Source: Gaiellaceae bacterium (GTDB lineage Bacteria > Actinomycetota > Thermoleophilia > Gaiellales > Gaiellaceae). From it: a stretch of 64,000 bases of DNA. Below, one piece after another: positions 3,753-36,189 of this stretch. Under the pieces are notes generated by a model. It made no database searches. It saw only the letters and a program-made list of their open reading frames with translations, and had not been told where the DNA came from. Numbering within the stretch: the first letter of the stretch is position 1; every line of letters begins with the position of its first letter. Made by a program: the position numbers and the translations under genes. The stretch spans positions 884 through 64,883 of the forward strand of contig DASUAX010000089.1 of NCBI GenBank assembly GCA_035763525.1, read 5' to 3'.

Positions 3753-4724
3753 CTACTCTTTCGAGAGCCAGGCGTCAAGCACCCGTTGCTCCTTCGCGCG
3801 ATCGAGGCCCGCGTCCGTTCCGGCCGGCGCCTCGCCGCGCGCGACCCAGGCGAGCGTGTCGCGCACCGTTTCCTCGAGCGGGCGTGTCTCGAGCCCGGCG
3901 CCGAAGGCGGGCGAGGGATCGACCGAGAGCATCCCGGCGTACTCGGCGCTCGAGAGCCAGAGCGGGAGCTCCAGCCACTCGCCGACGTCGTGCGCGAGCA
4001 GGAAGTCGCCGTCGACCCAGACGAGCTCGGCGTCCGATCGCGCGACGCCGCGGCAGGTATCGAGCAGCGTCGCCCGGGTCACCGGTCGGTCGACCGCGTT
4101 GAAGGTCCCGGCGAGGCCGTCCTCGGCCGCGCGCACGATCCAGCCCGCGAGGTCGCGGGCATCGATCACCTGAGCGTCGGCGTCGGGCGGCGCGGGTGCG
4201 AGCACGCGGCCGCCGGCCGCGATCCGCTCGGGCCAGTACGTGAAGCGGCCGGTCGGGTCCCAGGGCCCGACGATCAGGCCCGGCCGCACCACGAATGCGT
4301 CGGGGAAGCGCTCGCGAACAACGTCCTCGCAATCGGCTTTCAGCTCGCCGTACGCCTCGCGCCACTCCTCCGTCGGCGCCTCGAGCTCGCGCACCGCGGA
4401 GCCCTCGGTCGGAGGCGTCGAGAGATCGGCGTAGACCGAGATCGACGAGACGAACGTGTAGTGCCCGACGTCTCCGAGCACGTCGATCGTCTCCCGGACG
4501 ACGCGCGGCACGTAGCCGCTCGTGTCGAGGACCGCGTCGAACGAGCGGCCGGAGAGCGCGTCCAGGCCGCCGTCGCGGTCGCCGTGGAGCTTCTCGACGC
4601 CGGGGAAGAGCTCGGGCCGCGTACGGCCGCGGTTGAACGTGGTCACGTCGTGCCCGCGCGCGAGCGCGACGTCGACGGTGTGACGGCCGAGGAACTGCGT
4701 GCCGCCGAGGACGAGGATGCGCAT
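3753..4724 (-). CDS. NAD-dependent epimerase/dehydratase family protein
   Basis: 323 aa. N-terminal MRILVLGGTQFLGRH Rossmann motif; extended-SDR architecture. Confidence 0.85.
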   Translation of the reverse strand: MRILVLGGTQFLGRHTVDVALARGHDVTTFNRGRTRPELFPGVEKLHGDRDGGLDALSGRSFDAVLDTSGYVPRVVRETIDVLGDVGHYTFVSSISVYADLSTPPTEGSAVRELEAPTEEWREAYGELKADCEDVVRERFPDAFVVRPGLIVGPWDPTGRFTYWPERIAAGGRVLAPAPPDADAQVIDARDLAGWIVRAAEDGLAGTFNAVDRPVTRATLLDTCRGVARSDAELVWVDGDFLLAHDVGEWLELPLWLSSAEYAGMLSVDPSPAFGAGLETRPLEETVRDTLAWVARGEAPAGTDAGLDRAKEQRVLDAWLSKE

Positions 4725-4756
4725 TCGCCCACCGTACGGCAGCTAGAGTCGGCGGC

Positions 4757-4975
4757 GTGGCGCGTATCGAGATCCTCTATTGCCCCGTCTGAAGCGGCTA
4801 TGACCGACGCGCCGCGAGTCTCGTGGCGGAGCTGAACGGACTCGAGCACGAGGCGGAGATGACCGAGGGCCGGCAGAGCCAGTTCGACGTGGTCGCCGAC
4901 GGCCGGCTCGTGTTCTCGAAGCAGGCCGAGGGGCGGTTCCCGGAGCTGGCCGACCTGCTCGCGTCGTTGAAGTGA
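4757..4975 (+). CDS. SelW/Rdx-family selenoprotein candidate (in-frame TGA at 4790-4792 read as Sec)
   Basis: GTG 4757 gives VARIEILYCPV-U-SGYDRRAASLVAELNGLEHEAEMTEGRQSQFDVVADGRLVFSKQAEGRFPELADLLASLK. It shows the CxxU redox motif, GY..RA, and the G.F.V..DG.L.FSK...GRFPE tail typical of the Rdx fold. Its stop 4973-4975 overlaps the GTG of the next gene. Confidence 0.7.
4810..4828 (+). promoter_or_regulatory. candidate bacterial SECIS hairpin for the SelW-like gene
   Basis: CGCCGCG-AGUCU-CGUGGCG: a 7-bp stem with one G-U pair and a 5-nt loop with G in second position. The stem starts 17 nt after the UGA. Confidence 0.4.
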
Positions 4976-5448
4976 TCCGCCATGCCGAGCCGCGTGACCA
5001 TGCCGCGGTGATCGGCGTGATCGACGAGTGGTGGGGCGGACGGTCGATGGCGGCGATGCTGCCGAAGCTCTTCTTCGTCCACTTTCGCGAGACGTCGTTC
5101 GTCGCCGAGGAGGGCGGCCGTGTCACGGGGTTCCTGTGCGGGTTCCGCTCGCAGACGTTTCCCGAGGAGGCGTACATCCATTTCGTCGGCGTCGCGCCGG
5201 AGAAGCGCGGCGGCGGGCTCGGGCGCGAGCTGTACGAGCGGTTCTTCGCCGCGGTCGCCCCCCGTACGGTCGTCCGTGCCGTCACCTCGCCCGTCAACGA
5301 ACGGTCGGTCGCGTTCCACCGCGCGCTCGGCTTCGAGGTCGAGCGTGTCGACGAGGACTACGACGGGCGCGGCGAGGCGCGCGTCCTCTTTCGCAAAGCG
5401 CTTCAAGAGGCTCCAGCCGGCGCGCGATCATTCGGTCAGAACCCCTAA
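4972..5448 (+). CDS. GNAT-family N-acetyltransferase
   Basis: 158 aa. Acetyl-CoA binding motif VGVAPEKRGGGLGRELY; GTG start overlaps the upstream stop. Confidence 0.85.
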   Translation: MIRHAEPRDHAAVIGVIDEWWGGRSMAAMLPKLFFVHFRETSFVAEEGGRVTGFLCGFRSQTFPEEAYIHFVGVAPEKRGGGLGRELYERFFAAVAPRTVVRAVTSPVNERSVAFHRALGFEVERVDEDYDGRGEARVLFRKALQEAPAGARSFGQNP

Positions 5449-5491: not shown

Positions 5492-6829
5492 GTGGGTGCG
5501 CCCGTCTACCGGGGCACGTTCGACGCGCCGCAGGCCGAGCGGCTGCTCTGGCGTGCCGGCTTCGGGCCGCGGCCGGGCGAGGCGCAGGCGCTGGCAAGGC
5601 TCGGGCTCGACGGCGCCGTCCACTCGCTCCTCAACCCCGGCGTCGAGAAGCTCGTCGGCCCGAAGCCCCACGACGCGAAGGGCCGCCCGTTGGCCCCCGC
5701 CGACCGCTGGGGGCACGACCACTGCTGGTGGCTCGACCGCATGGTGCGCACGTCGCGGCCGCTCGTCGAACGCATGGCGCTCGTCTGGCACGACTGGTTC
5801 GCGACGTCGAACGCCGGCGTCGGCGACCAGAAGCTGATGCTCCAGCAGAACGAGCTCTTCCGGAAGCACGGGCTCGGCTCGTTCGAGCGGCTGCTCCTCT
5901 CCGTGACGGCGAACCCCGCGATGCTGCTGTGGCTCAACGGCACCGAGAACACGAAGGACGCGCCGAACGAGAACTACGGGCGCGAGATGATGGAGCTGTT
6001 CACGCTCGGCGCGAACCGCGGCGCCTACACCGAGCGCGACGTGCGCGAGCAGGCGCGGTCGCTGACCGGATGGACGAGCCGCTGGAGCCGCGGCCGCGGC
6101 GACTACGACTTCCACTTCGACGCGACGCGGCACGACCCGGGGACGAAGACGGTGTTCCGCCACTCGGGCCGCTACGCGTGGCGTGACGCGTGCCGGCTCT
6201 GCCTCTCGAACCCGAAGCACCCGTCGTTCTTCGTGCAGAAGCTCTGGGGCTACTTCGTCCCGGTGCCGCCCGACGCTGCGACGGCGCGGGCGCTCGAGGC
6301 GGCGTACACGCAGGGGCACGAGCTCAGGCCGGTGCTCGACATCGTCCTCAAGCACCCGGCGCTGTATACCGGGCCGCGCATGACGAAGCCGCCGGTCGTC
6401 CACACCGCCGGCCTGCTCCGGCGGATCGGCGCCGGCGTGACCACCGACTCGTGGGCCTGGATCGGCTCGCTCGCCGGGCAGCAGCTCTTCTACCCGCCGA
6501 ACGTCGCCGGCTGGGACGACACGCGCTGGCTCGACACCGCCACCTTCCGCGGCCGGTGGATCGGCGTGGCTCAGCTCCTGAACGACCGCCGCCTCGACCC
6601 GTCGAAGGGGAAGGCGCCCGCCGACGCGCAGACGGTGCTGAAGCGCGCGCTCGCCTTCTGGCGCAACCCCGCGCTCTCCGACGCGACGCACCGCGCGCTG
6701 CTGCAGTTCGCGAAGGAGTCGCTGCACCAGGCGGGCTCGCAGCGCTGGAAGCAGGTGCAGTACCCGGTGCTCGTCGAGAACGCGCTTCGCCAGCTGATCG
6801 CCGTGTCCCCCGACCTGCAGACGTCATGA
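5492..6829 (+). CDS. DUF1800-family protein
   Basis: 445 aa. N-terminal AERLLWRAGFGP and the later HDWFATS, ENYGREMMELFTLG, GWT motifs are characteristic of DUF1800. Paired with DUF1501 as usual. Confidence 0.85.
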   Translation: MGAPVYRGTFDAPQAERLLWRAGFGPRPGEAQALARLGLDGAVHSLLNPGVEKLVGPKPHDAKGRPLAPADRWGHDHCWWLDRMVRTSRPLVERMALVWHDWFATSNAGVGDQKLMLQQNELFRKHGLGSFERLLLSVTANPAMLLWLNGTENTKDAPNENYGREMMELFTLGANRGAYTERDVREQARSLTGWTSRWSRGRGDYDFHFDATRHDPGTKTVFRHSGRYAWRDACRLCLSNPKHPSFFVQKLWGYFVPVPPDAATARALEAAYTQGHELRPVLDIVLKHPALYTGPRMTKPPVVHTAGLLRRIGAGVTTDSWAWIGSLAGQQLFYPPNVAGWDDTRWLDTATFRGRWIGVAQLLNDRRLDPSKGKAPADAQTVLKRALAFWRNPALSDATHRALLQFAKESLHQAGSQRWKQVQYPVLVENALRQLIAVSPDLQTS

Positions 6830-8181
6830 GTAGTCGCGTCGTGTGTGACGAGTGCACGCGCGCCGATCTGTTCAGGGCGGCGGCGGGGCAGGGGCTGCCG
6901 GCGGTCGAGGCGGGCATGCCGACGCCCGCGGGCACGGGCCTCACGCGACGAGGCTTCGTCGCGCGCTCCGTCGGGCTCGCGCTCACGGTGTACGGCGCGG
7001 GCCGGCTCGGGATCTTCGACGAGGGCATCGCCGCCGCGGCGAGCGGGCCGCAGCAGCCGATCCTCGTCACGGTGTTCCTGCAGGGCGGAGCCGACTCGCT
7101 GACGCTCCTCTCGCCGCAGGCCGACCCGCTCTACCGCAAGCTGCGGCCGAGCCTCGCGGTCAGCGGCGGCACGCCGTTCGCGGAGGATGCGAGTCTCTCG
7201 TGGCACCCGGCGCTCGCGCCGCTCGCGCAGCTCCACGCCGAGGGCAAGGTGAGCGTGCTGCCGGCCGTCGGCTACGACCACCCCGACCAGTCACATTTCA
7301 CCTCCCGGCACTTCTGGGAGGTGGGCGCGACCGACCCGCGGCTCCTGACCGGCTGGCTCGGCCGCTATCTCGACGCCGTAGGGACGACGGACAATCCGCT
7401 GCAGGGGCTCTCGTTGACCGGGTCGCTCCAGCCGGCGCTCGCGACGGCGAAGGTGCCGGTCGCGGCGATCGACGGGCCGGGCGAGTACGACTTCTGGACG
7501 CCCGGCGTGTGGGGCGAGGTGCAGGACAGGATGCTCGACGCGATCGGCCACCTCGGCCGCACCGGCGGGCACGACGCCGCCATGCGCACCGTCGCGAACG
7601 TGACGGCGCAGGCCTCGACGCTGCGCAAGCAGCTCGCGCCCTTCGCCGGCGACAAGATCGCCGCGCCGGCCGTGACCTATCCGGCCGGCGACTCCTTCCC
7701 GCAGCGCCTGCAGGGCCTTGCCGCGATGATCGCCGCCGGCCTGCCGCTGCGCTGCGTCGCGCTCGAGGCGACCGGCGAGTACGACACGCATGCGTCGCAG
7801 GCATCGGCGCTCGGCCCGGCGCTGCAGACGACGGCCGCGTCCCTGTACGCGTTCCAGCGCGATCTCGAGGCCCGGGGCGTCGCCGACCGCGTCCTCACGC
7901 TCGTGTGGACCGAGTTCGGCCGCCGCGCGAAGGAGAACGGCTCCGGCGGCACCGACCACGGCGCGGCCGGAAGCGGCTTCCTGATCGGCACGCGCGCTGC
8001 CGGGACGCAGGTCGGCGAGTTCCCCGGGCTCGCCGGCGGCCTCGACGAGGACGGCAACCTGAAGGCGACCTCCGACTTCCGCGGCGTCTACGCCGGGCTG
8101 CTCGAGCAGTGGCTCTCGTTCGACGCGGAGCGCATCCTCCCACGCGCCTCGTCGTTTGCGCGGCCGACGCTCGTCAAGTGA
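6826..8181 (+). CDS. DUF1501-family (sulfatase-like) protein with Tat-type signal
   Basis: ATG 6826 overlaps the DUF1800 stop (ATGA). Reads MSSRVVCDECTR...LTRRGFVARSVGLALTVYGAG, then the DUF1501 core (GGADSL, EFGRR..ENGSGGTDHG). Confidence 0.85.
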   Translation: MSSRVVCDECTRADLFRAAAGQGLPAVEAGMPTPAGTGLTRRGFVARSVGLALTVYGAGRLGIFDEGIAAAASGPQQPILVTVFLQGGADSLTLLSPQADPLYRKLRPSLAVSGGTPFAEDASLSWHPALAPLAQLHAEGKVSVLPAVGYDHPDQSHFTSRHFWEVGATDPRLLTGWLGRYLDAVGTTDNPLQGLSLTGSLQPALATAKVPVAAIDGPGEYDFWTPGVWGEVQDRMLDAIGHLGRTGGHDAAMRTVANVTAQASTLRKQLAPFAGDKIAAPAVTYPAGDSFPQRLQGLAAMIAAGLPLRCVALEATGEYDTHASQASALGPALQTTAASLYAFQRDLEARGVADRVLTLVWTEFGRRAKENGSGGTDHGAAGSGFLIGTRAAGTQVGEFPGLAGGLDEDGNLKATSDFRGVYAGLLEQWLSFDAERILPRASSFARPTLVK

Positions 8182-13407: not shown

Positions 13408-13914
13408 GTGCCGCTCCCCGACCCGACGCGTGGCCCCGTCACGCGGCCCCGGTCGCTCGACGCGACCGACCGCGCGATCATCGAGGCGCTGCAGTCGAAC
13501 GGCCGGGCGTCCTTCCGCGGCGTCGCCTCGCGGATCGGCGTCGCCGAGGGGACGGTCAGGGCTCGCTATGCGCGACTCGTCGAGGACGGCATCCTCCAGG
13601 TCACCGGAGTCACGAACCCGCTCGGCCTCGGCTTCGAGGCGATGGCGATGATCGGGATCAAGACGACCGGGAGCCCGGAGCCGGTCGCGGACGCGATCGC
13701 GGGGTGGGAGGAGGCGAGCTACGTCGTCGTCACGGCCGGGAGCTTCGACGTGCTCGTCGAGGTCGTCTGCGTCGACCGCCGCCACCTGCTCGAGCTGACG
13801 ACGCGGGCGCGCGCCACTCCCGGTGTGGCGACCACCGAGACGTTCCTCTACCTCGATCTCGCGAAGCAGGTCTTCGCCTGGGGCACGCACATGGACAACG
13901 GCGCCGCCGCATGA
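13408..13914 (+). CDS. Lrp/AsnC-family transcriptional regulator
   Basis: 168 aa. LDATDRAIIEALQSNGRASFRGVASRIGVAEGTVRARYARLVEDGIL HTH plus a C-terminal AsnC ligand domain. Confidence 0.9.
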   Translation: MPLPDPTRGPVTRPRSLDATDRAIIEALQSNGRASFRGVASRIGVAEGTVRARYARLVEDGILQVTGVTNPLGLGFEAMAMIGIKTTGSPEPVADAIAGWEEASYVVVTAGSFDVLVEVVCVDRRHLLELTTRARATPGVATTETFLYLDLAKQVFAWGTHMDNGAAA

Positions 13915-14047
13915 CCGTAGGCTCGACGGAGCTCATCACCGGCGTAGGCTCGACGGAGCCGGCAAGGAGCGGAGGTTGCGGCTTTGCCGCCGCCGAGGCG
14001 GATGCAGAGCGGAGGCGGCGGCTTTGCCGCCGCCCGGAGCCGGAATC
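13915..14047 (+). repeat. intergenic repeat element, internally duplicated copy
   Basis: CGTAGGCTCGACGGAGC occurs at 13916 and 13943. GAGCGGAGG..GCGGCTTTGCCGCCGCC occurs at 13967 and 14007. The same modules occur at 57294-57357 and in diverged form at 17169-17239. Confidence 0.7.
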
Positions 14048-15112
14048 ATGACCGTGCACGACGTGAGGCTCGAGAACGTCACGAAGCAGTTCGCCGACGT
14101 GACCGCGGTGGACGAGATGTCGCTCGACGTCGAGAGCGGCAAGTTCTACGCCTTCCTCGGGCCGTCGGGCTGCGGCAAGACGACCACGCTGCGGATGATC
14201 GGCGGCTTCGAGGAGCCGACGGAGGGGACGATCTACCTCGGCGACCGAACGGTCACGGGGCTGCCGCCGTACAAACGAGACGTCAACACCGTCTTCCAGA
14301 GCTACGCCCTCTTCCCGCATCTCACCGTCTTCGAGAACGTCGCCTTCGGCCTTCGCCGCAGGCGCGTCAAGAAGCAGCTGCTGCGTGGTCAGGTCGAGGA
14401 GATGCTGCGCATCGTCGGGCTCGAGGGCTACGGCGGGCGCCGCCCGAAGCAGCTCTCGGGAGGCCAGCAGCAGCGGGTCGCGCTCGCGAGGGCGCTCGTC
14501 AACCGCCCGCGCGTGCTGCTCCTCGACGAGCCGCTCGGGGCGCTCGACCTGAAGCTCCGCAAGGAGATGCAGCTCGAGCTGAAGCGCATCCAGCACGAGA
14601 TGGGCTTCACGTTCATTCACGTGACGCACGACCAGGAGGAGGCCATGACGATGGCCGATCGCATCGTCGTCATGAACCGCGGCCGGATCGAGCAGCTCGG
14701 CGACCCTGCCGAGCTGTACGAACGGCCGCGCACGGCGTTCGTCGCGAGCTTCCTCGGCGTCTCGAACCTGCTCGGCGGCGTCGTGGCCGGGCCGGAGCTC
14801 GTGCGGCTCGAGAGCGGCCAGGAGCTGCGTGTCGCGGCCGGGGTGCTGAACGGGCATACGGGGCCCGTCTCGGTCGGCATCCGGCCGGAGAAGGTGAGGA
14901 TCGGCGGCGACGGCGTGAACCGCCTCGCCGGGCAGATCGTCGAGCGGGCCTACGTCGGCGTCTCGACGCAGTACGTCGTCAAGACGGACGTCGGGCAGGT
15001 GAGCGTGTACGTGCAGGGAGCGGGCGAGCACGTGCCCGGCGAGCAGCTCCAGCTGTCGTTCGCGCCCGAGTCAGCATTCGTCGTTTCCAGATCGGAGGAG
15101 GATCGCCCATGA
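14048..15112 (+). CDS. potA: spermidine/putrescine-type ABC transporter ATP-binding protein
   Basis: ATG 14048. Walker A GPSGCGKTT, signature LSGGQQQRVALARAL, Walker B LLLDEP, and a C-terminal TOBE-like domain. Confidence 0.9.
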   Translation: MTVHDVRLENVTKQFADVTAVDEMSLDVESGKFYAFLGPSGCGKTTTLRMIGGFEEPTEGTIYLGDRTVTGLPPYKRDVNTVFQSYALFPHLTVFENVAFGLRRRRVKKQLLRGQVEEMLRIVGLEGYGGRRPKQLSGGQQQRVALARALVNRPRVLLLDEPLGALDLKLRKEMQLELKRIQHEMGFTFIHVTHDQEEAMTMADRIVVMNRGRIEQLGDPAELYERPRTAFVASFLGVSNLLGGVVAGPELVRLESGQELRVAAGVLNGHTGPVSVGIRPEKVRIGGDGVNRLAGQIVERAYVGVSTQYVVKTDVGQVSVYVQGAGEHVPGEQLQLSFAPESAFVVSRSEEDRP

Positions 15113-16293
15113 GCGAGACCCAGTTCACCCGGCAGGATCTACTGCGGCGCGCCGTCGCGGGCAGCGCGCTCCTCAGCGTCCCAGGCCTCCTCGCTGCCTG
15201 CGGCGGCGGCTCGAAGTCGGGCGCCGGCACGACGGCGGCCACCACGACGGGCGGCGGCGCGAAGACGCTGCCGAAGACGATCACGTTCTCGAACTGGCCG
15301 CTCTACATCGACGTCAACGAGAAGACGAAGACGCACCCGTCGCTCGTCCAGTTCCAGAAGCACTACGGCGTCAAGGTCAAGTACCTCGAGGACATCAACG
15401 ACAACGACAGCTTCTTCGGGAAGATCGAAGGGCCGCTCTCGCAGGGGCAGTCGATCGGCCGCGACATCATCGTGCTCACCGACTCGTCCGGCCTGCCCGG
15501 CCGCATGATCGAGCTCGGCTGGCTCCAGAAGCTCGACAAGTCGGCGATCCCGAACTTCAAGAACCTGCAGCCGACGCTTCGCCACCCGAACTGGGACGAG
15601 AACCGCGACTACAGCTTGCCGTGGCAGTCGGGCATGACCGGCATCGGCTACGACCCGAAGCTGACGGGCGGCGACGTCACGTCCCTGAAGGAGCTCCTCA
15701 CCAACCCGAAGCTGAAAGGGAAGGTGACGATGCTGACGGAGATGGCCGACTCGGTCGGCGCGGTCATGCTGATGAACGGCGACGACCCTTCGCACGTCAC
15801 CGATGCGTCCTTCAACAAGGCGATCGACACGATGAAGAAGGCGGTCTCGTCGGGTCAGATCCGTCAGTTCACCGGCAACGACTACGCGCCGCTGCTCGCG
15901 AAGGGCGACATCCACGCGTGCCTCGCGTGGTCGGGCGACATGGTGCAGCTGCAGGCGGACCACCCGGGGCTCAAGTGGGTGCTGCCGGACACCGGCGGCA
16001 TGATCTGGACCGACCAGATGCTGATCCCGAAGGGCGGCAACGCGTATGCCGCCTCCGTGGTCATGAACTGGTTCTACCGCCCGCAGATCGCGGCGGAGGT
16101 CGAGGACTACGTCAACTACATCTGCCCGGTCGTCGGCGCCGACAAGGTGCTCGAGAAGACGGACCCGGCGATCGCGAAGAACCCGCTCATCTTCCCGACG
16201 AAGGCGATGCTGGCGAACACGCACCAGTTCGACGCGAAGGCGCTCAACAACCAGAAGTACAAGAAGGCGTTCCAGGCGCTCATCGCCGGCTGA
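15109..16293 (+). CDS. potD: polyamine-type ABC substrate-binding protein (Tat/lipoprotein signal)
   Basis: ATGA overlap with potA. TRQDLLRRAVAGSALLSVPGLLAACGGG signal. PotD/PotF-like body (FSNWPLYID, LPWQSGMTGIGY). Confidence 0.85.
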   Translation: MSETQFTRQDLLRRAVAGSALLSVPGLLAACGGGSKSGAGTTAATTTGGGAKTLPKTITFSNWPLYIDVNEKTKTHPSLVQFQKHYGVKVKYLEDINDNDSFFGKIEGPLSQGQSIGRDIIVLTDSSGLPGRMIELGWLQKLDKSAIPNFKNLQPTLRHPNWDENRDYSLPWQSGMTGIGYDPKLTGGDVTSLKELLTNPKLKGKVTMLTEMADSVGAVMLMNGDDPSHVTDASFNKAIDTMKKAVSSGQIRQFTGNDYAPLLAKGDIHACLAWSGDMVQLQADHPGLKWVLPDTGGMIWTDQMLIPKGGNAYAASVVMNWFYRPQIAAEVEDYVNYICPVVGADKVLEKTDPAIAKNPLIFPTKAMLANTHQFDAKALNNQKYKKAFQALIAG

Positions 16294-16305
16294 GGGCAGC
16301 GACGT

Positions 16306-17168
16306 TGCGCCTGCTGCACCGTCAGAAGGGAGCGATCCCGTACATGCTGCTCGCGCCGGGCATGGCGTGGCTGCTCGTCTTCTTCGTGGTGCCGATGTGG
16401 TACCTCGCGAAGATGTCGCTGTCGTCGGGGCTGTTCCCCCTGTTCAACTTCGGTTGGGCGTGGGGGAACTTCCACGACGCGATCAGCCTGTACCAGACGC
16501 AGTTCGTCCGCTCCGGTCAGTACGCGGCGATCGCGACGGCGATTGCGCTCGTCGTCTCGTATCCGCTCGCCTACTGGATCGCATTTCGCGGCGGCCGCTG
16601 GAAGAACCTCTTCCTGCTGCTCGTGATCGCGCCGTTCTTCGTCACGTACCTGATCCGCACGCTCGCGTGGCAGACCATCCTCGCCGACAACGGCGTGATC
16701 GTGAAGACGCTGCAGCACGTCGGCATCCTCGGGTCCGACGGGCGCCTGCTCGCAACCTCGGCGGCGGTGATCGCGGGCATCACCTACAACTTCCTGCCGT
16801 TCATGGTGCTCCCGCTCTACGTGAGCCTGGAGCAGATCGACCAGCGGCTCATCGAGGCGGCCGAGGACCTGTACGCGTCGAAGCCGCGCGCGTTCCTGCG
16901 CGTGACGTTCCCTCTCTCCCTGCCGGGCGTCTTCGCCGGCGTGCTCCTGACGTTCATCCCGGCGGCCGGCGACTTCATCAACGCGCAGCTGCTCGGCACG
17001 CCGCGCCAGTACATGATCGGGAACGTCATCCAGTCGGAGTTCCTCGCCGTGCGCGACTACCCGACCGCGGCGGCGCTTTCGTTCGTGCTGATGGCGGCGA
17101 TCCTCGTGCTCGTCCTCGTCTTCGCGCGGATTCTCGGCACCGAGCGACTGACGGTGTCGCACGTATGA
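16306..17168 (+). CDS. potB: polyamine-type ABC permease
   Basis: TTG 16306 is the likely start (ATG 16343 is the alternative). Has the EAA loop IEAAEDLYASKPRAFLRVTFPLSLPG. Confidence 0.85.
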
Positions 17169-17239
17169 GGCGTAGACCCGCCGGAGCCGAGCAAAGAGCG
17201 CGGTCGGCTTTGCCGGCGCCGGAGCGGGCTTTCAGGTGG
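17169..17239 (+). repeat. diverged copy of the intergenic repeat element
   Basis: CGTAGACCCGCCGGAGC ... CGGTCGGCTTTGCCGGCGCCGGAGCGGG. The 3' half is nearly identical to 57331-57356. Confidence 0.55.
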
Positions 17240-18028
17240 GTGCGGCGTCATGTCCTGACCGCGTACGCGGCGCTCGCGCTCGCGTACCTGTTCCTGCCGA
17301 TCGCGATCGTCGTCGCCTTCTCGTTCAACAATCCGAAGGGCCGCTTCAACTTCACGTGGGCGGGCTTCACGTGGAAGAACTGGGAGAACCCGTTCGCGTT
17401 CCCGGGCATCGGCCCCGCGCTTCGCGTCAGCATCGAGCTCGCCCTCCTCTCGTCGCTGATCGCGACGATCCTCGGGACGCTCATCGCGCTCGCGCTCGTC
17501 CGCTATCGCTTCCGCGGCAGCGCGACCACCAACATGCTCATCTTCATCCCGATGACGACGCCCGAGGTGGTGATGGGCGCCTCGCTGCTGACGCTGTTCG
17601 TCAACTGGCGCATCGCGCAGGGCTTCGGGACGATCCTGATCGCACACATCCTCTTCAACATCAGCTACGTCGTCGTCACCGTGCGCGCGCGGCTCGTCGG
17701 GTTCGACCGCCACCTCGAGGAGGCGGCGATGGATCTCGGCGCCAACGAGTGGGTGACGTTCTTGCGCGTGACGCTGCCGCTGATCATGCCGGGCATCCTC
17801 GCGGCGGGGTTGCTCGCGTTCGCGCTCTCGATCGACGACTTCGTGATCACGTACTTCAACGCCGGCGCGACGACGACGTTCCCGCTCTTCGTGTGGGGCG
17901 CGGCGCGCGTGGCGACCCCGCCGCAGATCAACGTGATCGGGACGGCGATCTTCGTGATCGCCGTCAGCGGGATGCTCGCGAACATCCTCTTCCAGAACTA
18001 CCGCGCACGGAAAGGAGTGCTCGTATGA
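17240..18028 (+). CDS. potC: polyamine-type ABC permease
   Basis: GTG 17240 gives VRRHVLTAYAALALAYLFLPIAIVVAFSFN, the usual PotC N-terminus. Has the EAA loop EEAAMDLGANEWVTFLRVTLPLIMPG. Alternative ATG 17165 would translate the repeat. Confidence 0.85.
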   Translation: MRRHVLTAYAALALAYLFLPIAIVVAFSFNNPKGRFNFTWAGFTWKNWENPFAFPGIGPALRVSIELALLSSLIATILGTLIALALVRYRFRGSATTNMLIFIPMTTPEVVMGASLLTLFVNWRIAQGFGTILIAHILFNISYVVVTVRARLVGFDRHLEEAAMDLGANEWVTFLRVTLPLIMPGILAAGLLAFALSIDDFVITYFNAGATTTFPLFVWGAARVATPPQINVIGTAIFVIAVSGMLANILFQNYRARKGVLV

Positions 18029-19434
18029 CCTTCGACTTCCAGCAGGCGGCCCGGGACCACCTCTGGCTGCATTTCACCCGCATGGGCACGTACGGACGCG
18101 CCGACGTGCCGATCATCGTGCGCGGCGAGGGGTGCTATCTCGAGGACGCGAACGGGAAGCGGTACCTCGACGCCCTGGCGGGGCTGTTCGCCGTCCAGAT
18201 CGGCTACTCGCACGGCGAGGAGATCGGGCAGGCGGCGCTCGAGCAGATGAAGGAGCTGCCCTTCTACACGAACTGGTCGTACGCGCATCCGCGCGCGATC
18301 GAGCTCGCGCACGAGGTCGCGCAGCTCGCGCCGGGCGACCTGAACAGGGTGTTCTTCGTCTCGGGCGGCTCGGAGGCCGTCGAGGCGGCCTGGAAGCTCG
18401 CGCGCCAGTGGCACCTGGCGCGCGGCGAGCGCCGCTGGAAGGCGATCGCGCGGCGCACCGCGTACCACGGCACGACGATGGGCGCGCTCTCGATCAACGG
18501 CATCCCCGCGCTCAAGAACACGTTCGAGCCGCTCGTCCCGGAGACGTTGCACGTCCGCAACACGAACCGCTACCACCGGCCGCCCGAGGAGACGGAGGAG
18601 GAGTTCACGGCGTTCCTCCTCGACGACCTCGAGCAGGCGATCCTCGCCGCGGGGCCGGCGACGGTGGCGATGGTGATCATGGAGCCGGTGCAGAACGCCG
18701 GCGGCTCGTTCACGCCCCCGGCCGGCTATTTCCAGGGCGTGCACGAGATCTGCGACCGGTACGGGATCCTGCTCTGCGCCGACGAGGTGATCACGGGCTT
18801 CGGGCGCGTCGGCGACTGGTTCGCGTCGGAGACGTACGACATCCGCCCCGACCTCGTCACGTGCGCGAAGGGGCTTTCCTCGGCCTACGCCGCGATCGGC
18901 GCAGTGCTCGCGACCGACCGCGTCTTCGAGCCGTTCCTGGACGAGAAGGCGATGTACACGCACGGGATGACCTTCGGCGGCCATCCGGTGATGTGTGCGA
19001 TCGCGCTCAAGAACATCGAGATCATGAAGCGCGAGCGGGTGCTCGAGAACGTGCGCGAGAACGAGTCGTACTTCCGCGGCGCGCTCGAGCAGTTGAAGGA
19101 GCTCGACATCGTCGGCGACGTGCGCGGGACGGGCTACTTCTACGCGGTCGAGCTCGTGCGCGACAGGGAGACACGCGAGACCTTCACCGAGGCGGAGAGC
19201 GAGACGCTCCTGCGCGGCTTCCTCTCGCCGAGGCTCTTCGAGCGCGGCCTCATCTGCCGCGCCGACGACCGTGGTGACCCGGTCGTGCAGATCTCGCCGC
19301 CGCTCGTCGCGGGCCGTGCGGAGATCGACGAGCTGACCGGGACGCTCGGCGACGTGCTCGCCGAGGCGCAGGAGCGTGTGGACGTCCGTCACGTGGAGAC
19401 GGCGACGCGCACGCCCGGACAGCGCGTTCCGTGA
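18025..19434 (+). CDS. class-III (omega-amine/putrescine:pyruvate-type) aminotransferase
   Basis: ATGA overlap with potC. 469 aa with SGGSEAVEAAWKLAR, ADEVITGFGRVG and TCAKGLSS (PLP lysine). Confidence 0.9.
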   Translation: MTFDFQQAARDHLWLHFTRMGTYGRADVPIIVRGEGCYLEDANGKRYLDALAGLFAVQIGYSHGEEIGQAALEQMKELPFYTNWSYAHPRAIELAHEVAQLAPGDLNRVFFVSGGSEAVEAAWKLARQWHLARGERRWKAIARRTAYHGTTMGALSINGIPALKNTFEPLVPETLHVRNTNRYHRPPEETEEEFTAFLLDDLEQAILAAGPATVAMVIMEPVQNAGGSFTPPAGYFQGVHEICDRYGILLCADEVITGFGRVGDWFASETYDIRPDLVTCAKGLSSAYAAIGAVLATDRVFEPFLDEKAMYTHGMTFGGHPVMCAIALKNIEIMKRERVLENVRENESYFRGALEQLKELDIVGDVRGTGYFYAVELVRDRETRETFTEAESETLLRGFLSPRLFERGLICRADDRGDPVVQISPPLVAGRAEIDELTGTLGDVLAEAQERVDVRHVETATRTPGQRVP

Positions 19435-34327: not shown

Positions 34328-34921
34328 TCAGTCGAGCTGAGCGAACGCCTGCTCGAACACCGCGCGGGGCTGGGCGCCCGGCACGATCAGCCGCCGGTCG
34401 AGCAGGAACGCCGGGATCCCGGTGACCCCGATCGACTGCGCCTGCGCCGTCAGGCCGTGCACGCGGTCGCGGTAGTCGTCGCTCCCGAGCACGCGCTCGA
34501 CGTCGTCGCCCGGCAGGTCGGAGAGAAGCCGCCGCAGCTCGTCGTGGTCGCCGATATCGGCGCCGTCGCGCCAGTAGGCGTCCATCAGGCGGTCGTGCAC
34601 CTCCTCGTGCCGGCCGAGGTCGCGTGCGAGCTCCGTCAGCCGCAGAGCGTCGAGCGTGCGCGGGACGACCTCGGGGTTCGGCGCGTAGTCGAGCCCCTCC
34701 TCCGCGAATCGCCCGCGCAGGCCCACATGGAAGCGGTCGCCGTAGCGGGCGAGAAGGTCGGCGCGGGGAAGGCCGCCCGGCGGGTATTCCGGGTGCAGGT
34801 CGAACGGGAGCCACGTCACCTCGGCGTCGAACTCGCGCCGGAGCCACTCGGCCAGGGGCTGGCCGAGGCGGCAGAACGGTCAGATGTAGTCCGACCAGAC
34901 GAGCACGTCGTGCGCGGCCAC
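34328..34921 (-). CDS. DsbA/FrnE-like thiol oxidoreductase, selenoprotein candidate (TGA at 34880-34882 read as Sec)
   Basis: The minus frame is continuous: V(34921)AAHDVLVWSDYI-U-PFCRLGQPLAEWLRREFDAEVTWLPFDLHPEYP... and runs to the stop at 34328. The TGA sits exactly where the family has CPxC. The track shows only the downstream 163-aa piece. Alternative GTG start at 34906. Confidence 0.75.
34847..34867 (-). promoter_or_regulatory. candidate bacterial SECIS hairpin for the DsbA-like gene
   Basis: CUCGGCCAG-CCC-CUGGCCGAG: a perfect 9-bp inverted repeat starting 12 nt after the UGA. Confidence 0.45.
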
Positions 34922-34923
34922 GA

Positions 34924-36189
34924 CTACACCTCCAGCGCGAGCAGGTCGTCGAGCGTCTCTCGTCGGCGGATCAGCCGCGCCTCGCCGTCTCCGACGAGCA
35001 CCGCCGCCGGCCGCGGCACCGCGTTGTAGGTCGACGCCATCGCGAGCGTGTACGCGCCGGTCACCGGCACCGCCAGGATGTCCCCGCGCTCGGGCCGCGG
35101 CAGCTCGACGCGCTCGATCAGCACGTCGCCGGACTCGCAGTGCTTGCCTGCGACGGCGTACGCGCCGTCGGGGTCGGCCTCCGCCCTCGTCGCGACCAGC
35201 GCCGCGTAGCGCGCGTTGTACATCGCGGGCCGCGGGTTGTCGGACATGCCGCCGTCGACCGTGACGTACGTCGTCGCCGCGCTCGCACGCTTCACTCCAC
35301 CGACGGTGTAGAGCGTGACTCCCGCGCGCGACACGAGCGAGCGTCCCGGCTCGAGCACGAGCTCCGGCTCGGGGAGCCCCTGCAGCTGCCAGGCGCGCCG
35401 CAACTCGCCGGTCAGCCCGCCGACGAACTCCTCGACGGTGAACGCCGGCTCCTCGAGCACGTGCCGGACGCCGAGCCCGCCGCCGAGATCCACGACGCGG
35501 GGCGTCCACCCGTGCTCCGCGCGCAGGCGCGCCGCGAACTGCGCGACCCAGTCGACCGTCATCAGCGACGCGCCGAAGTGCATGAGCTGCGAGCCCACGT
35601 GCACGTGCAGCCCCTCGCAGTCGGGCAACCGGCCGACGAGCTCGACGGCGTCCTCCGGCGGCAGCCCGAACTTGGAGCCGTGATGGGCGGTCTTCACCGC
35701 CTCGTGCGTGTCCGCCTCGATCCCGGGCGTCACGCGCACCAGGAAGCGCGTGACGCCGGCGTCACGCGCCCGGTCGAGCTCCTCGAGCGAGTCGAGCACG
35801 ACGAGCGCGGTCGCTTCTGCAGCGGCGCGCAGCAGTGCGTCCTCCTTGTTGTTCCCGTGGACGACGACCCTCTCTCCGGTGAGGCCGGCGCGAAGGGCGA
35901 ACTCGAGCTCGCCGGACGTCGAGACGTCGGCCCCGAGCCCCTCCTCGGCGAACAGGCGCAGCACCGCGACGGAGGGAAACGCCTTCGTCCCGTAGACCAC
36001 GAGTGCCCCCGGAGCGGCGGCGCGGTAGGCGCGTGCCTGGCTCCGCAGCGTCTCCTCGTCGTAGACGAGGAGCGGCGTTCCGAACTCGCCGGCGAGCTCG
36101 GACGCGCGTACGCCGCCGAGGAGGAGCTCGCCGTCCTCGACCGCCGTGCCGTCCGGGAAGAGGTCCTTCGTCGTCGCCACGTCAGGCAT
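34924..36189 (-). CDS. lysA: diaminopimelate decarboxylase
   Basis: 421 aa with a YGTKAF region, HVHVGSQ, EPGRSLV, CESGD and full-length family resemblance. Confidence 0.95.
   Translation of the reverse strand: MPDVATTKDLFPDGTAVEDGELLLGGVRASELAGEFGTPLLVYDEETLRSQARAYRAAAPGALVVYGTKAFPSVAVLRLFAEEGLGADVSTSGELEFALRAGLTGERVVVHGNNKEDALLRAAAEATALVVLDSLEELDRARDAGVTRFLVRVTPGIEADTHEAVKTAHHGSKFGLPPEDAVELVGRLPDCEGLHVHVGSQLMHFGASLMTVDWVAQFAARLRAEHGWTPRVVDLGGGLGVRHVLEEPAFTVEEFVGGLTGELRRAWQLQGLPEPELVLEPGRSLVSRAGVTLYTVGGVKRASAATTYVTVDGGMSDNPRPAMYNARYAALVATRAEADPDGAYAVAGKHCESGDVLIERVELPRPERGDILAVPVTGAYTLAMASTYNAVPRPAAVLVGDGEARLIRRRETLDDLLALEV

Follow-up and report, generated by a model that had tools for sequence, protein, structure and literature searches.

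An Rdx/SelW-like gene of Gaiellales with a conserved in-frame UGA very probably decoded as selenocysteine

The window (the whole 64-kb stretch of DNA analysed, with a GC content of 72%) carries on its forward strand a short gene which is interrupted by a TGA codon close to its 5′ end and which had been described in an earlier note as a SelW/Rdx-like selenoprotein gene (Table 1). The frame from GTG 4757 reads VARIEILYCPV, followed by TGA (4790-4792), then by SGYDRRAASLVAELNGLEHEAEMTEGRQSQFDVVADGRLVFSKQAEGRFPELADLLASLK, a protein segment which runs SGYDRR...LLASLK, and ends at the stop TGA 4973-4975; frame, TGA position and sequence were all found as given in that note. No open reading frame in translation table 11 spans the first TGA, and the sole one listed at the locus corresponds to a 50-amino acid tail (4823-4975), in agreement with the earlier statement that the gene is not covered by any listed open reading frame. 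The overlap of the stop with the start of the following GNAT acetyltransferase gene in the letters GTGA, which had also been pointed out, was found as well, with TGA 4973-4975 lying on GTG 4972-4974.

The order of genes at the locus (epimerase, followed by Rdx, GNAT and DUF1800) is common only to near-identical contigs and to the closest relative, L017, and in other relatives the neighbours of the Rdx gene are paa, enoyl-CoA hydratase or cytochrome oxidase genes. A conserved operon around the Rdx gene was considered and rejected, the arrangement being restricted to L017 and the near-identical contigs. The GNAT gene is a neighbour of the Rdx gene and no part of a conserved system, and the gene context provides no functional clue. 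Directly 3′ of the GNAT gene, at 5492-8181 (+), are found a DUF1800 protein (305 bits) and an open reading frame with a twin-arginine signal which looks like the DUF1501 type, a call made from its translation alone; the two would constitute a common DUF1800/DUF1501 pair of unknown function. The region 13823-19434 (+) appears, as far as the translations of its open reading frames tell, to encode a polyamine-type ABC transporter (ATPase, binding protein and two permeases) and then an aminotransferase, and looks ordinary.

Table 1 Features of the Rdx/SelW-like gene, of its downstream neighbour and of the DsbA-like gene in the window
Feature	Position	Strand	Basis or remark
Rdx/SelW-like gene, very probably encoding a selenoprotein	4757-4975	+	72 sense codons including predicted Sec12, plus stop; translation, HMMs, orthologues
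GTG start codon	4757-4759	+	ATG/GTG 8-11 codons 5′ of the TGA in 87/87 distinct orthologues
Predicted CPVU redox motif (Cys9-Pro-Val-Sec12)	4781-4792	+	YCPV invariant or nearly so in the alignment
In-frame UGA, very probably read as selenocysteine	4790-4792	+	TGA in 95/97 loci
SECIS-type hairpin in coding sequence	4808-4829	+	Covariation, RNAalifold, frozen synonymous sites
UGA stop of the Rdx gene	4973-4975	+	Overlaps GNAT start (GTGA)
GNAT acetyltransferase gene	4972-5448	+	Pfam Acetyltransf_1 59.3 bits; start GTG 4972-4974 overlaps Rdx stop
DsbA/FrnE-like gene, predicted selenoprotein with UPFC motif	34328-34921	-	Pfam DSBA 99.2 bits, relatives' codons
In-frame TGA of the DsbA-like gene	34880-34882	-	Reads VLVWSDYI-TGA-PFC
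Candidate SECIS hairpin of the DsbA-like gene	34847-34867	-	Stem CUCGGCC/GGCCGAG, apical loop beginning AG
GTG start of the DsbA-like gene	34919-34921	-	2 nt after lysA stop

With U replaced by C, the conceptual translation scored 41.7 bits for the Pfam family Rdx (PF10262; cut-off 22.6) in a match to HMM positions 1-71 of 74, and the UGA fell at the second Cys of the family CxxC motif. The 60-residue segment following the TGA was sufficient on its own to exceed the same cut-off (29.6 bits vs 22.6), and the NCBIfam model TIGR02174 (CXXU_selWTH) was also passed, with 38.2 bits against a cut-off of 34.2. The earlier note had named HMM comparison of the conceptual translation and similarity of the post-TGA segment to Rdx proteins as checks of the proposed SelW/Rdx-like family, and in both the family assignment was borne out. 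The score for the NCBIfam equivalog NF041051 (SelTWH_Campy) was 48.6 bits, below its cut-off of 88; the window protein is related to, but not a member of, that orthologous group. A family profile search of the PDB returned human MIEN1/C17orf37 (2LJK), which is an Rdx member, with E = 6.6e-5.

The fold was assessed by proxy, using the AlphaFold model of a natural Cys-form homologue (P0001) which is 68% identical to the window protein. In this model (pLDDT 92) the elements follow one another in the order beta1 (3-8), CxxC, alpha1 (15-28), beta2, beta3, beta4 and alpha2, which is the thioredoxin-like beta-alpha-beta-beta-beta-alpha fold, and the CxxC/CxxU motif, corresponding to residues 9-12 (CPVU) of the window protein, sits between beta1 and alpha1. 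The top 21 Foldseek matches of the model were bacterial SelW-related structures (TM 0.78-0.86), the best PDB neighbours being 2P0G, 2FA8, 2OBK, 2OJL, 2OKA and 3DEX, followed by MIEN1 and mouse SelW, with thioredoxins appearing later. The Cys-form SelW-related structures agreed with the P0001 model with an rmsd of 1.5-2.0 A over 70-76 columns and TM scores in the range given above. The proteins of Vibrio cholerae (2P0G), Agrobacterium tumefaciens (2FA8), Pseudomonas fluorescens (2OBK) and Streptomyces avermitilis (3DEX) are like the window protein in fold and in the placement of the CxxC-type motif, but they carry Cys instead of the predicted Sec and their sequence identity is 24-31%. The 72-residue protein is accordingly placed in the Rdx/SelW-like family, with a thioredoxin fold as modelled for its homologue.

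When 5.8 billion proteins were searched, the matches fell into two classes, namely pieces of 47-53 amino acids from after the TGA and 'full-length' proteins of 67-75 amino acids. The full-length homologues mostly read CPVW, with P0003-P0017 showing W, and every W at the Sec position corresponded to TGA in the DNA, which had been translated under an alternative code by the source pipeline. For the truncated homologues, CPV-TGA was found just upstream in the DNA. Relatives were present in 385 species genomes when GTDB was scanned with one genome per species, and the best 80 of these 385, nearly all of them Gaiellales/Gaiellaceae/Thermoleophilia MAGs, were fetched. The codon at the Sec position was TGA in 95, TGT in one and GGA in one of the 97 loci, and TGA was kept in all of the 80 species genomes fetched (the best 80 of 385). 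The sampling could not have favoured TGA, since the seed by which the TGA loci were recovered (GYD[REK]RAASL) lies downstream of the codon and is neutral to it, and the other seed pattern encoded W/C.

The orthologous proteins were 62-81% identical to the window protein. Coding constraint was evident on both sides of the TGA throughout the lineage: upstream, Y8, C9 and P10 were invariant and the peptide I.YCPV invariant or nearly so in the alignment, and downstream G14, Y15, D16 and others were invariant. The start codon was at the position seen in the window, -11 from the TGA, in 56 of the 87 distinct orthologues. No frameshifts were seen among the relatives (97 loci). The TGT (Cys) codon, L008:345-347, is from a 585-bp contig with one mismatch in the hairpin stem described below (U at position 22), and the GGA (Gly, giving CPVG) codon, L007:881-883, is from one 2.9-kb soil metagenome contig in which the hairpin is intact; the two are recent conversions or read errors. 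The relatives' codons, which the earlier note had proposed to inspect for frameshifts and for sense codons other than Cys or Sec, spoke for its reading with TGA in almost all loci, one Cys and intact frames, and against it only in the GGA of L007.

Two further observations were made on these loci. The contig L032 (JAICUZ010000196.1), binned as 'Burkholderiales bacterium', contains a typical Gaiellales-type Rdx gene which is 68% identical and has the TGA as well as the same hairpin, and is probably mis-binned. The Val codon 5′ of the Sec UGA (4787-4789 in the window) is GUC in 87/87 distinct orthologues and in 78 of 83 distinct sequences the UGA is followed by a purine, suggesting the possibility of a codon-context constraint which may act on recoding versus termination.

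Downstream of the in-frame UGA the coding sequence can form a hairpin with a stem of 8 bp (4810-4817 with 4821-4828), a GUC loop (4818-4820) and an outer pair, C4808-G4829, over a bulged G4809. When the U of the UGA is numbered 1, the stem is 21-28/32-39, the outer pair C19-G40 and the bulged base G20. The hairpin had been placed previously at 4810-4828 with a stem of 7 bp; the location was correct and the stem is one pair longer. The apical loop is found 25 nt after the UGA and the GU in it is invariant. In the bSECIS model, a bacterial element has a UGA-to-loop gap of 16-37 nt, 4 or more base pairs in the upper stem and 3-14 nt in the loop, with a G at one of the first two positions of the apical loop; the 25-nt gap, 8-bp stem and GUC loop of the Rdx gene lie within these bounds, as had been expected from the earlier description of a G-containing loop at a distance compatible with a bacterial SECIS.

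Standard pairs were formed by 99.0% of the stem cells in an alignment of 77 distinct rows, compared with 23-56% in slid controls in which the 3′ arm was shifted by 1-3 columns. Pair 21-39, both sides of which are third codon positions, was G-C in 69 rows, C-G in 5 and A-U in 3, and was never broken; pair 24-36 was C-G in 56, U-G in 13 and U-A in 5, and was broken in 3. RNAalifold returned the same 8-bp stem without a structure being supplied. The core GCGAGUCUCG (positions 25-34) was identical in 83/83 distinct sequences, and the Ala GCG, Ser AGU and Leu CUC codons of the stem-loop core were fixed in 87/87 distinct orthologues, whereas residues which are invariant elsewhere in the protein varied in codon (3 codons for G+2, 3 for S54, 5 for R60 and 3 for P62). 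Among the 382 Ser codons of 20 window genes called with confidence, AGU occurs only once (0.3%), and its fixation is therefore attributed to selection at the RNA level and not to codon preference.

The fold energy of the single sequence was no better than that of shuffled sequences (z +0.35 for 4785-4850 and -0.35 for 4790-4835). The case for the Rdx hairpin rests on the comparative evidence, which is strong, since the fold energy is unremarkable and at 72% GC uninformative. Folding of the region, which the earlier note had recommended, consequently had a divided outcome: the energy (z about 0) did not distinguish the hairpin, but covariation and RNAalifold did. No Rfam family was detected at gathering thresholds in the whole window, and only noise was returned at E up to 10 for 4650-5050. 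The core 10-mer GCGAGTCTCG has one occurrence in the window, and a SECIS motif shared with other genes through this 10-mer was ruled out by that single occurrence. The comparative data mark the Rdx hairpin as a real and conserved RNA structure which is under selection.

When all six frames of the window were scanned for TGA codons adjacent to a Cys in coding-like frames, four candidates emerged, among which only those at 4790 (+) and 34882 (-) had both a redox motif and a family match. The latter lies in a DsbA/FrnE-like gene preceded by a diaminopimelate-decarboxylase-like gene (lysA, 34924-36189). The translation with U replaced by C scored 99.2 bits with Pfam DSBA (PF01323), and in the window and 79 metagenome relatives the codon at the Sec position was TGA in 75/80 and TGC/TGT in 5/80. 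The second gene with TGA at the active site which had been announced near 34.9 kb was confirmed by this combination of a UPFC motif, a predominant TGA and a minority of Cys codons.

The candidate SECIS hairpin of the DsbA-like gene had a fold energy of -28.8 kcal/mol in the window (z = -2.24 vs shuffles). Of 60 distinct relatives, 50-58 retained its inner 4 bp and 58 had a 7-nt loop starting with AG. The outer pairs were poorly conserved and the consensus from RNAalifold was weak, with 4 bp in another register, so the hairpin is regarded as a candidate. The loops of both hairpins begin with AG, that of the Rdx gene only if its closing A-U pair opens. DsbA-like (UXXC) selenoproteins were described in 2005 in the Sargasso Sea study (PMC1088965), and the second gene is like them in having a DSBA domain, the motif UPFC with the predicted Sec in the first position and a minority of Cys homologues. 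Compared with them, its SECIS is loosely defined, with the inner stem and the loop starting with AG conserved and the outer stem not.

It is very probable that the locus 4757-4975 is an intact Sec-decoding Rdx/SelW-like gene in which the UGA is decoded by means of the SECIS hairpin, SelB and tRNA-Sec. The claim of the earlier note that the gene decodes Sec and is not a pseudogene is supported by the family match, by the TGA in 95/97 loci and by the covarying hairpin. In the proposed mechanism the in-ORF hairpin would be bound by SelB carrying Sec-tRNA(Sec), and this complex would deliver Sec to the UGA at 4790-4792 in competition with release factor 2, after which translation would proceed as far as the stop proper, UGA 4973-4975. 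The second residue of the CxxC-type active site would then be selenocysteine (CPVU), and the protein would most likely function as a thiol/selenol-disulfide oxidoreductase via a transient Cys9-Sec12 selenenylsulfide. Motifs of selA, selB and selD (six-frame patterns GH[VI]DHGK for SelB, G.G[C/U]G.K for SelD and GDK..GGPQ for SelA) were found neither in the 64-kb window nor in ~0.53 Mb of related loci, a result which is uninformative and not negative, and ARAGORN detected no tRNA in the 64-kb window and no tRNA-Sec among the 6 tRNAs of the fetched related loci. As no machinery genes turned up in the window and the fetched loci, decoding by SelB and tRNA-Sec and the insertion of Sec are inferred.

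A small chance is assigned jointly to two further readings, either that the UGA-hairpin pair is decoded in a non-canonical, selenium-free manner or that the Rdx protein is an anchor of the Sec trait. The first would involve SECIS/SelB-like recoding which inserts a residue other than Sec, for example Cys from a tRNA-Sec-like tRNA(Cys) with a UCA anticodon. Recoding systems of this kind have been proposed for some bacteria, and the comparative evidence as such does not tell Sec from another residue at the UGA. Insertion of a non-Sec residue is nevertheless very unlikely, as alternation between Sec and Cys, seen here in two known selenoprotein families (PMC1088965), is a textbook sign of Sec, and SECIS-dependent recoding without Sec is rare. 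If it did occur, Gaiellales would be a soil lineage in which SECIS-dependent recoding does not use selenium. According to the second reading, the near-universal Sec form (80/80 species) and the frozen SECIS may mark the Rdx protein as an anchor which keeps the Sec-decoding trait, a role usually ascribed to FdhA or SelD (PMC1794560); it would then sustain the whole Sec trait in an order of actinobacteria that is aerobic and abundant in soil.

That the locus is instead a decaying Rdx CxxC gene in which TGC or TGT has become TGA by nonsense mutation is extremely unlikely. Such an origin would agree with the lack of a standard open reading frame across TGA 4790-4792 and with the single mutation by which TGA differs from TGC or TGT, but the same TGA is present in 95/97 loci and in 80 species, frameshifts are absent, both flanks of the TGA are conserved as protein, the start codon is kept and a hairpin under RNA-level selection follows 3′ of the TGA. 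Because Y8, C9 and P10 are invariant and the start is present in 87/87 orthologues even though the proteins are only 62-81% identical, a pseudogene is excluded.

There is practically no likelihood, either, that UGA is a sense codon throughout the genome (Trp as in code 4 or Gly as in code 25), as the JGI CPVW calls imply. The W at the Sec position of P0003-P0017 and the one relative with GGA for Gly could be taken in its favour, but all of the W residues are TGA in the DNA, and UGA has not been reassigned genome-wide because it terminates 17 of the 23 confident genes in the window, including the Rdx gene itself, and 41 of 85 orthologues of the Rdx gene. Only two TGA codons of the window are in convincing coding frames, both of them at redox Cys positions, no other in-frame TGA at conserved Trp/Gly positions was found in the 64 kb, and a CxxW or CxxG sequence would abolish the redox motif of the family. 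Equally negligible is the reading of the locus as two products, an 11-residue leader ending at UGA 4790 and a separate 50-amino acid protein from GTG 4823 with the hairpin as a regulatory element or attenuator: the GTG is present in the window and gene callers give proteins of 47-53 amino acids for many relatives, but this reading is excluded because codon 4823-4825 is GCG (Ala), a non-start, in 48/83 distinct relatives (position 35), and, further, the callers choose different starts in different relatives, in the 50-amino acid piece the fold would be left without beta1 and the active site, and the upstream peptide is conserved as an Rdx N-terminus matching HMM positions 1-11.

The probable Sec-decoding Rdx gene can be compared with several known systems. 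Among the selenoprotein families of the Sargasso Sea set, the SelW-like (CXXU) proteins ranked first in abundance (Zhang and Gladyshev 2005, PMC1088965), and they have few Cys homologues among Sec users (PMC1794560), a pattern also seen here with 95 TGA versus 1 Cys. Like the bacterial SelW-like/Rdx selenoproteins, the window protein is small (~70-80 amino acids in the family), has a thioredoxin fold by proxy and an N-terminal CxxU, and its predicted Sec occupies the second redox position. Unlike those reported earlier, it is from soil Gaiellales/Thermoleophilia (Actinomycetota, 72% GC) and not from marine or anaerobic taxa, its motif is CPVU, and its SECIS core is unusually frozen, with a 10-nt stretch invariant over at least 80 species. 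With mammalian SelW (2NPB), which has CxxU, and MIEN1/C17orf37 (2LJK) it shares the Rdx family, by sequence (2LJK) and by fold. Eukaryotic SelW depends on a 3′-UTR SECIS, SBP2 and eEFSec, in contrast to the window gene, in which the putative SECIS is of the bacterial SelB type and lies in the coding region after the UGA.

In the SECIS of E. coli fdhF, the model case among bacterial elements, SelB binding requires both the GU of the apical loop and a U bulged from the upper stem. The Rdx hairpin is similar to it in being a stem-loop directly 3′ of the UGA inside the ORF, with GU in the loop and a bulge below the upper stem. It differs in that the bulged base (position 20) is G and not U. The loop of the Rdx hairpin has 3 nt (GUC) and would widen to 5 nt (AGUCU) on opening of the closing A-U pair, and the upper stem begins 17 nt after the UGA.

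In public protein collections the Rdx gene is present in two wrong forms, as JGI CPVW proteins (P0003-P0017) and as truncations of 47-53 amino acids (P0002, P0019-P0120), and because both forms hide the active site, the predicted redox-active selenoprotein is invisible to surveys of functions and traits. Some homologues already have the JGI label 'predicted Rdx family selenoprotein'; the database records found for the window gene family were either truncated or had W at the Sec position, without selenoprotein annotation of the gene. No relevant work on selenocysteine in Gaiella, Thermoleophilia or Conexibacter came up in the literature searched, and lineage-wide use of Sec in Gaiellales seems to be unreported, which would make it an incremental addition. 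Both families, SelW-like CXXU and DsbA-like UXXC, have been known since 2005, and the main value of the finding is the correction of annotation, not new biology.

The understanding of the Sec decoding mechanism is unchanged by the Rdx gene. SECIS and selenoprotein predictors admittedly perform poorly on atypical elements (PMC12013277), and a clean SECIS supported by covariation, from high-GC Actinomycetota, could help in training bacterial predictors. As for the organisms themselves, at least two families of thiol oxidoreductases appear to contain selenocysteine in Gaiellales, an abundant and poorly cultured order of soil bacteria.
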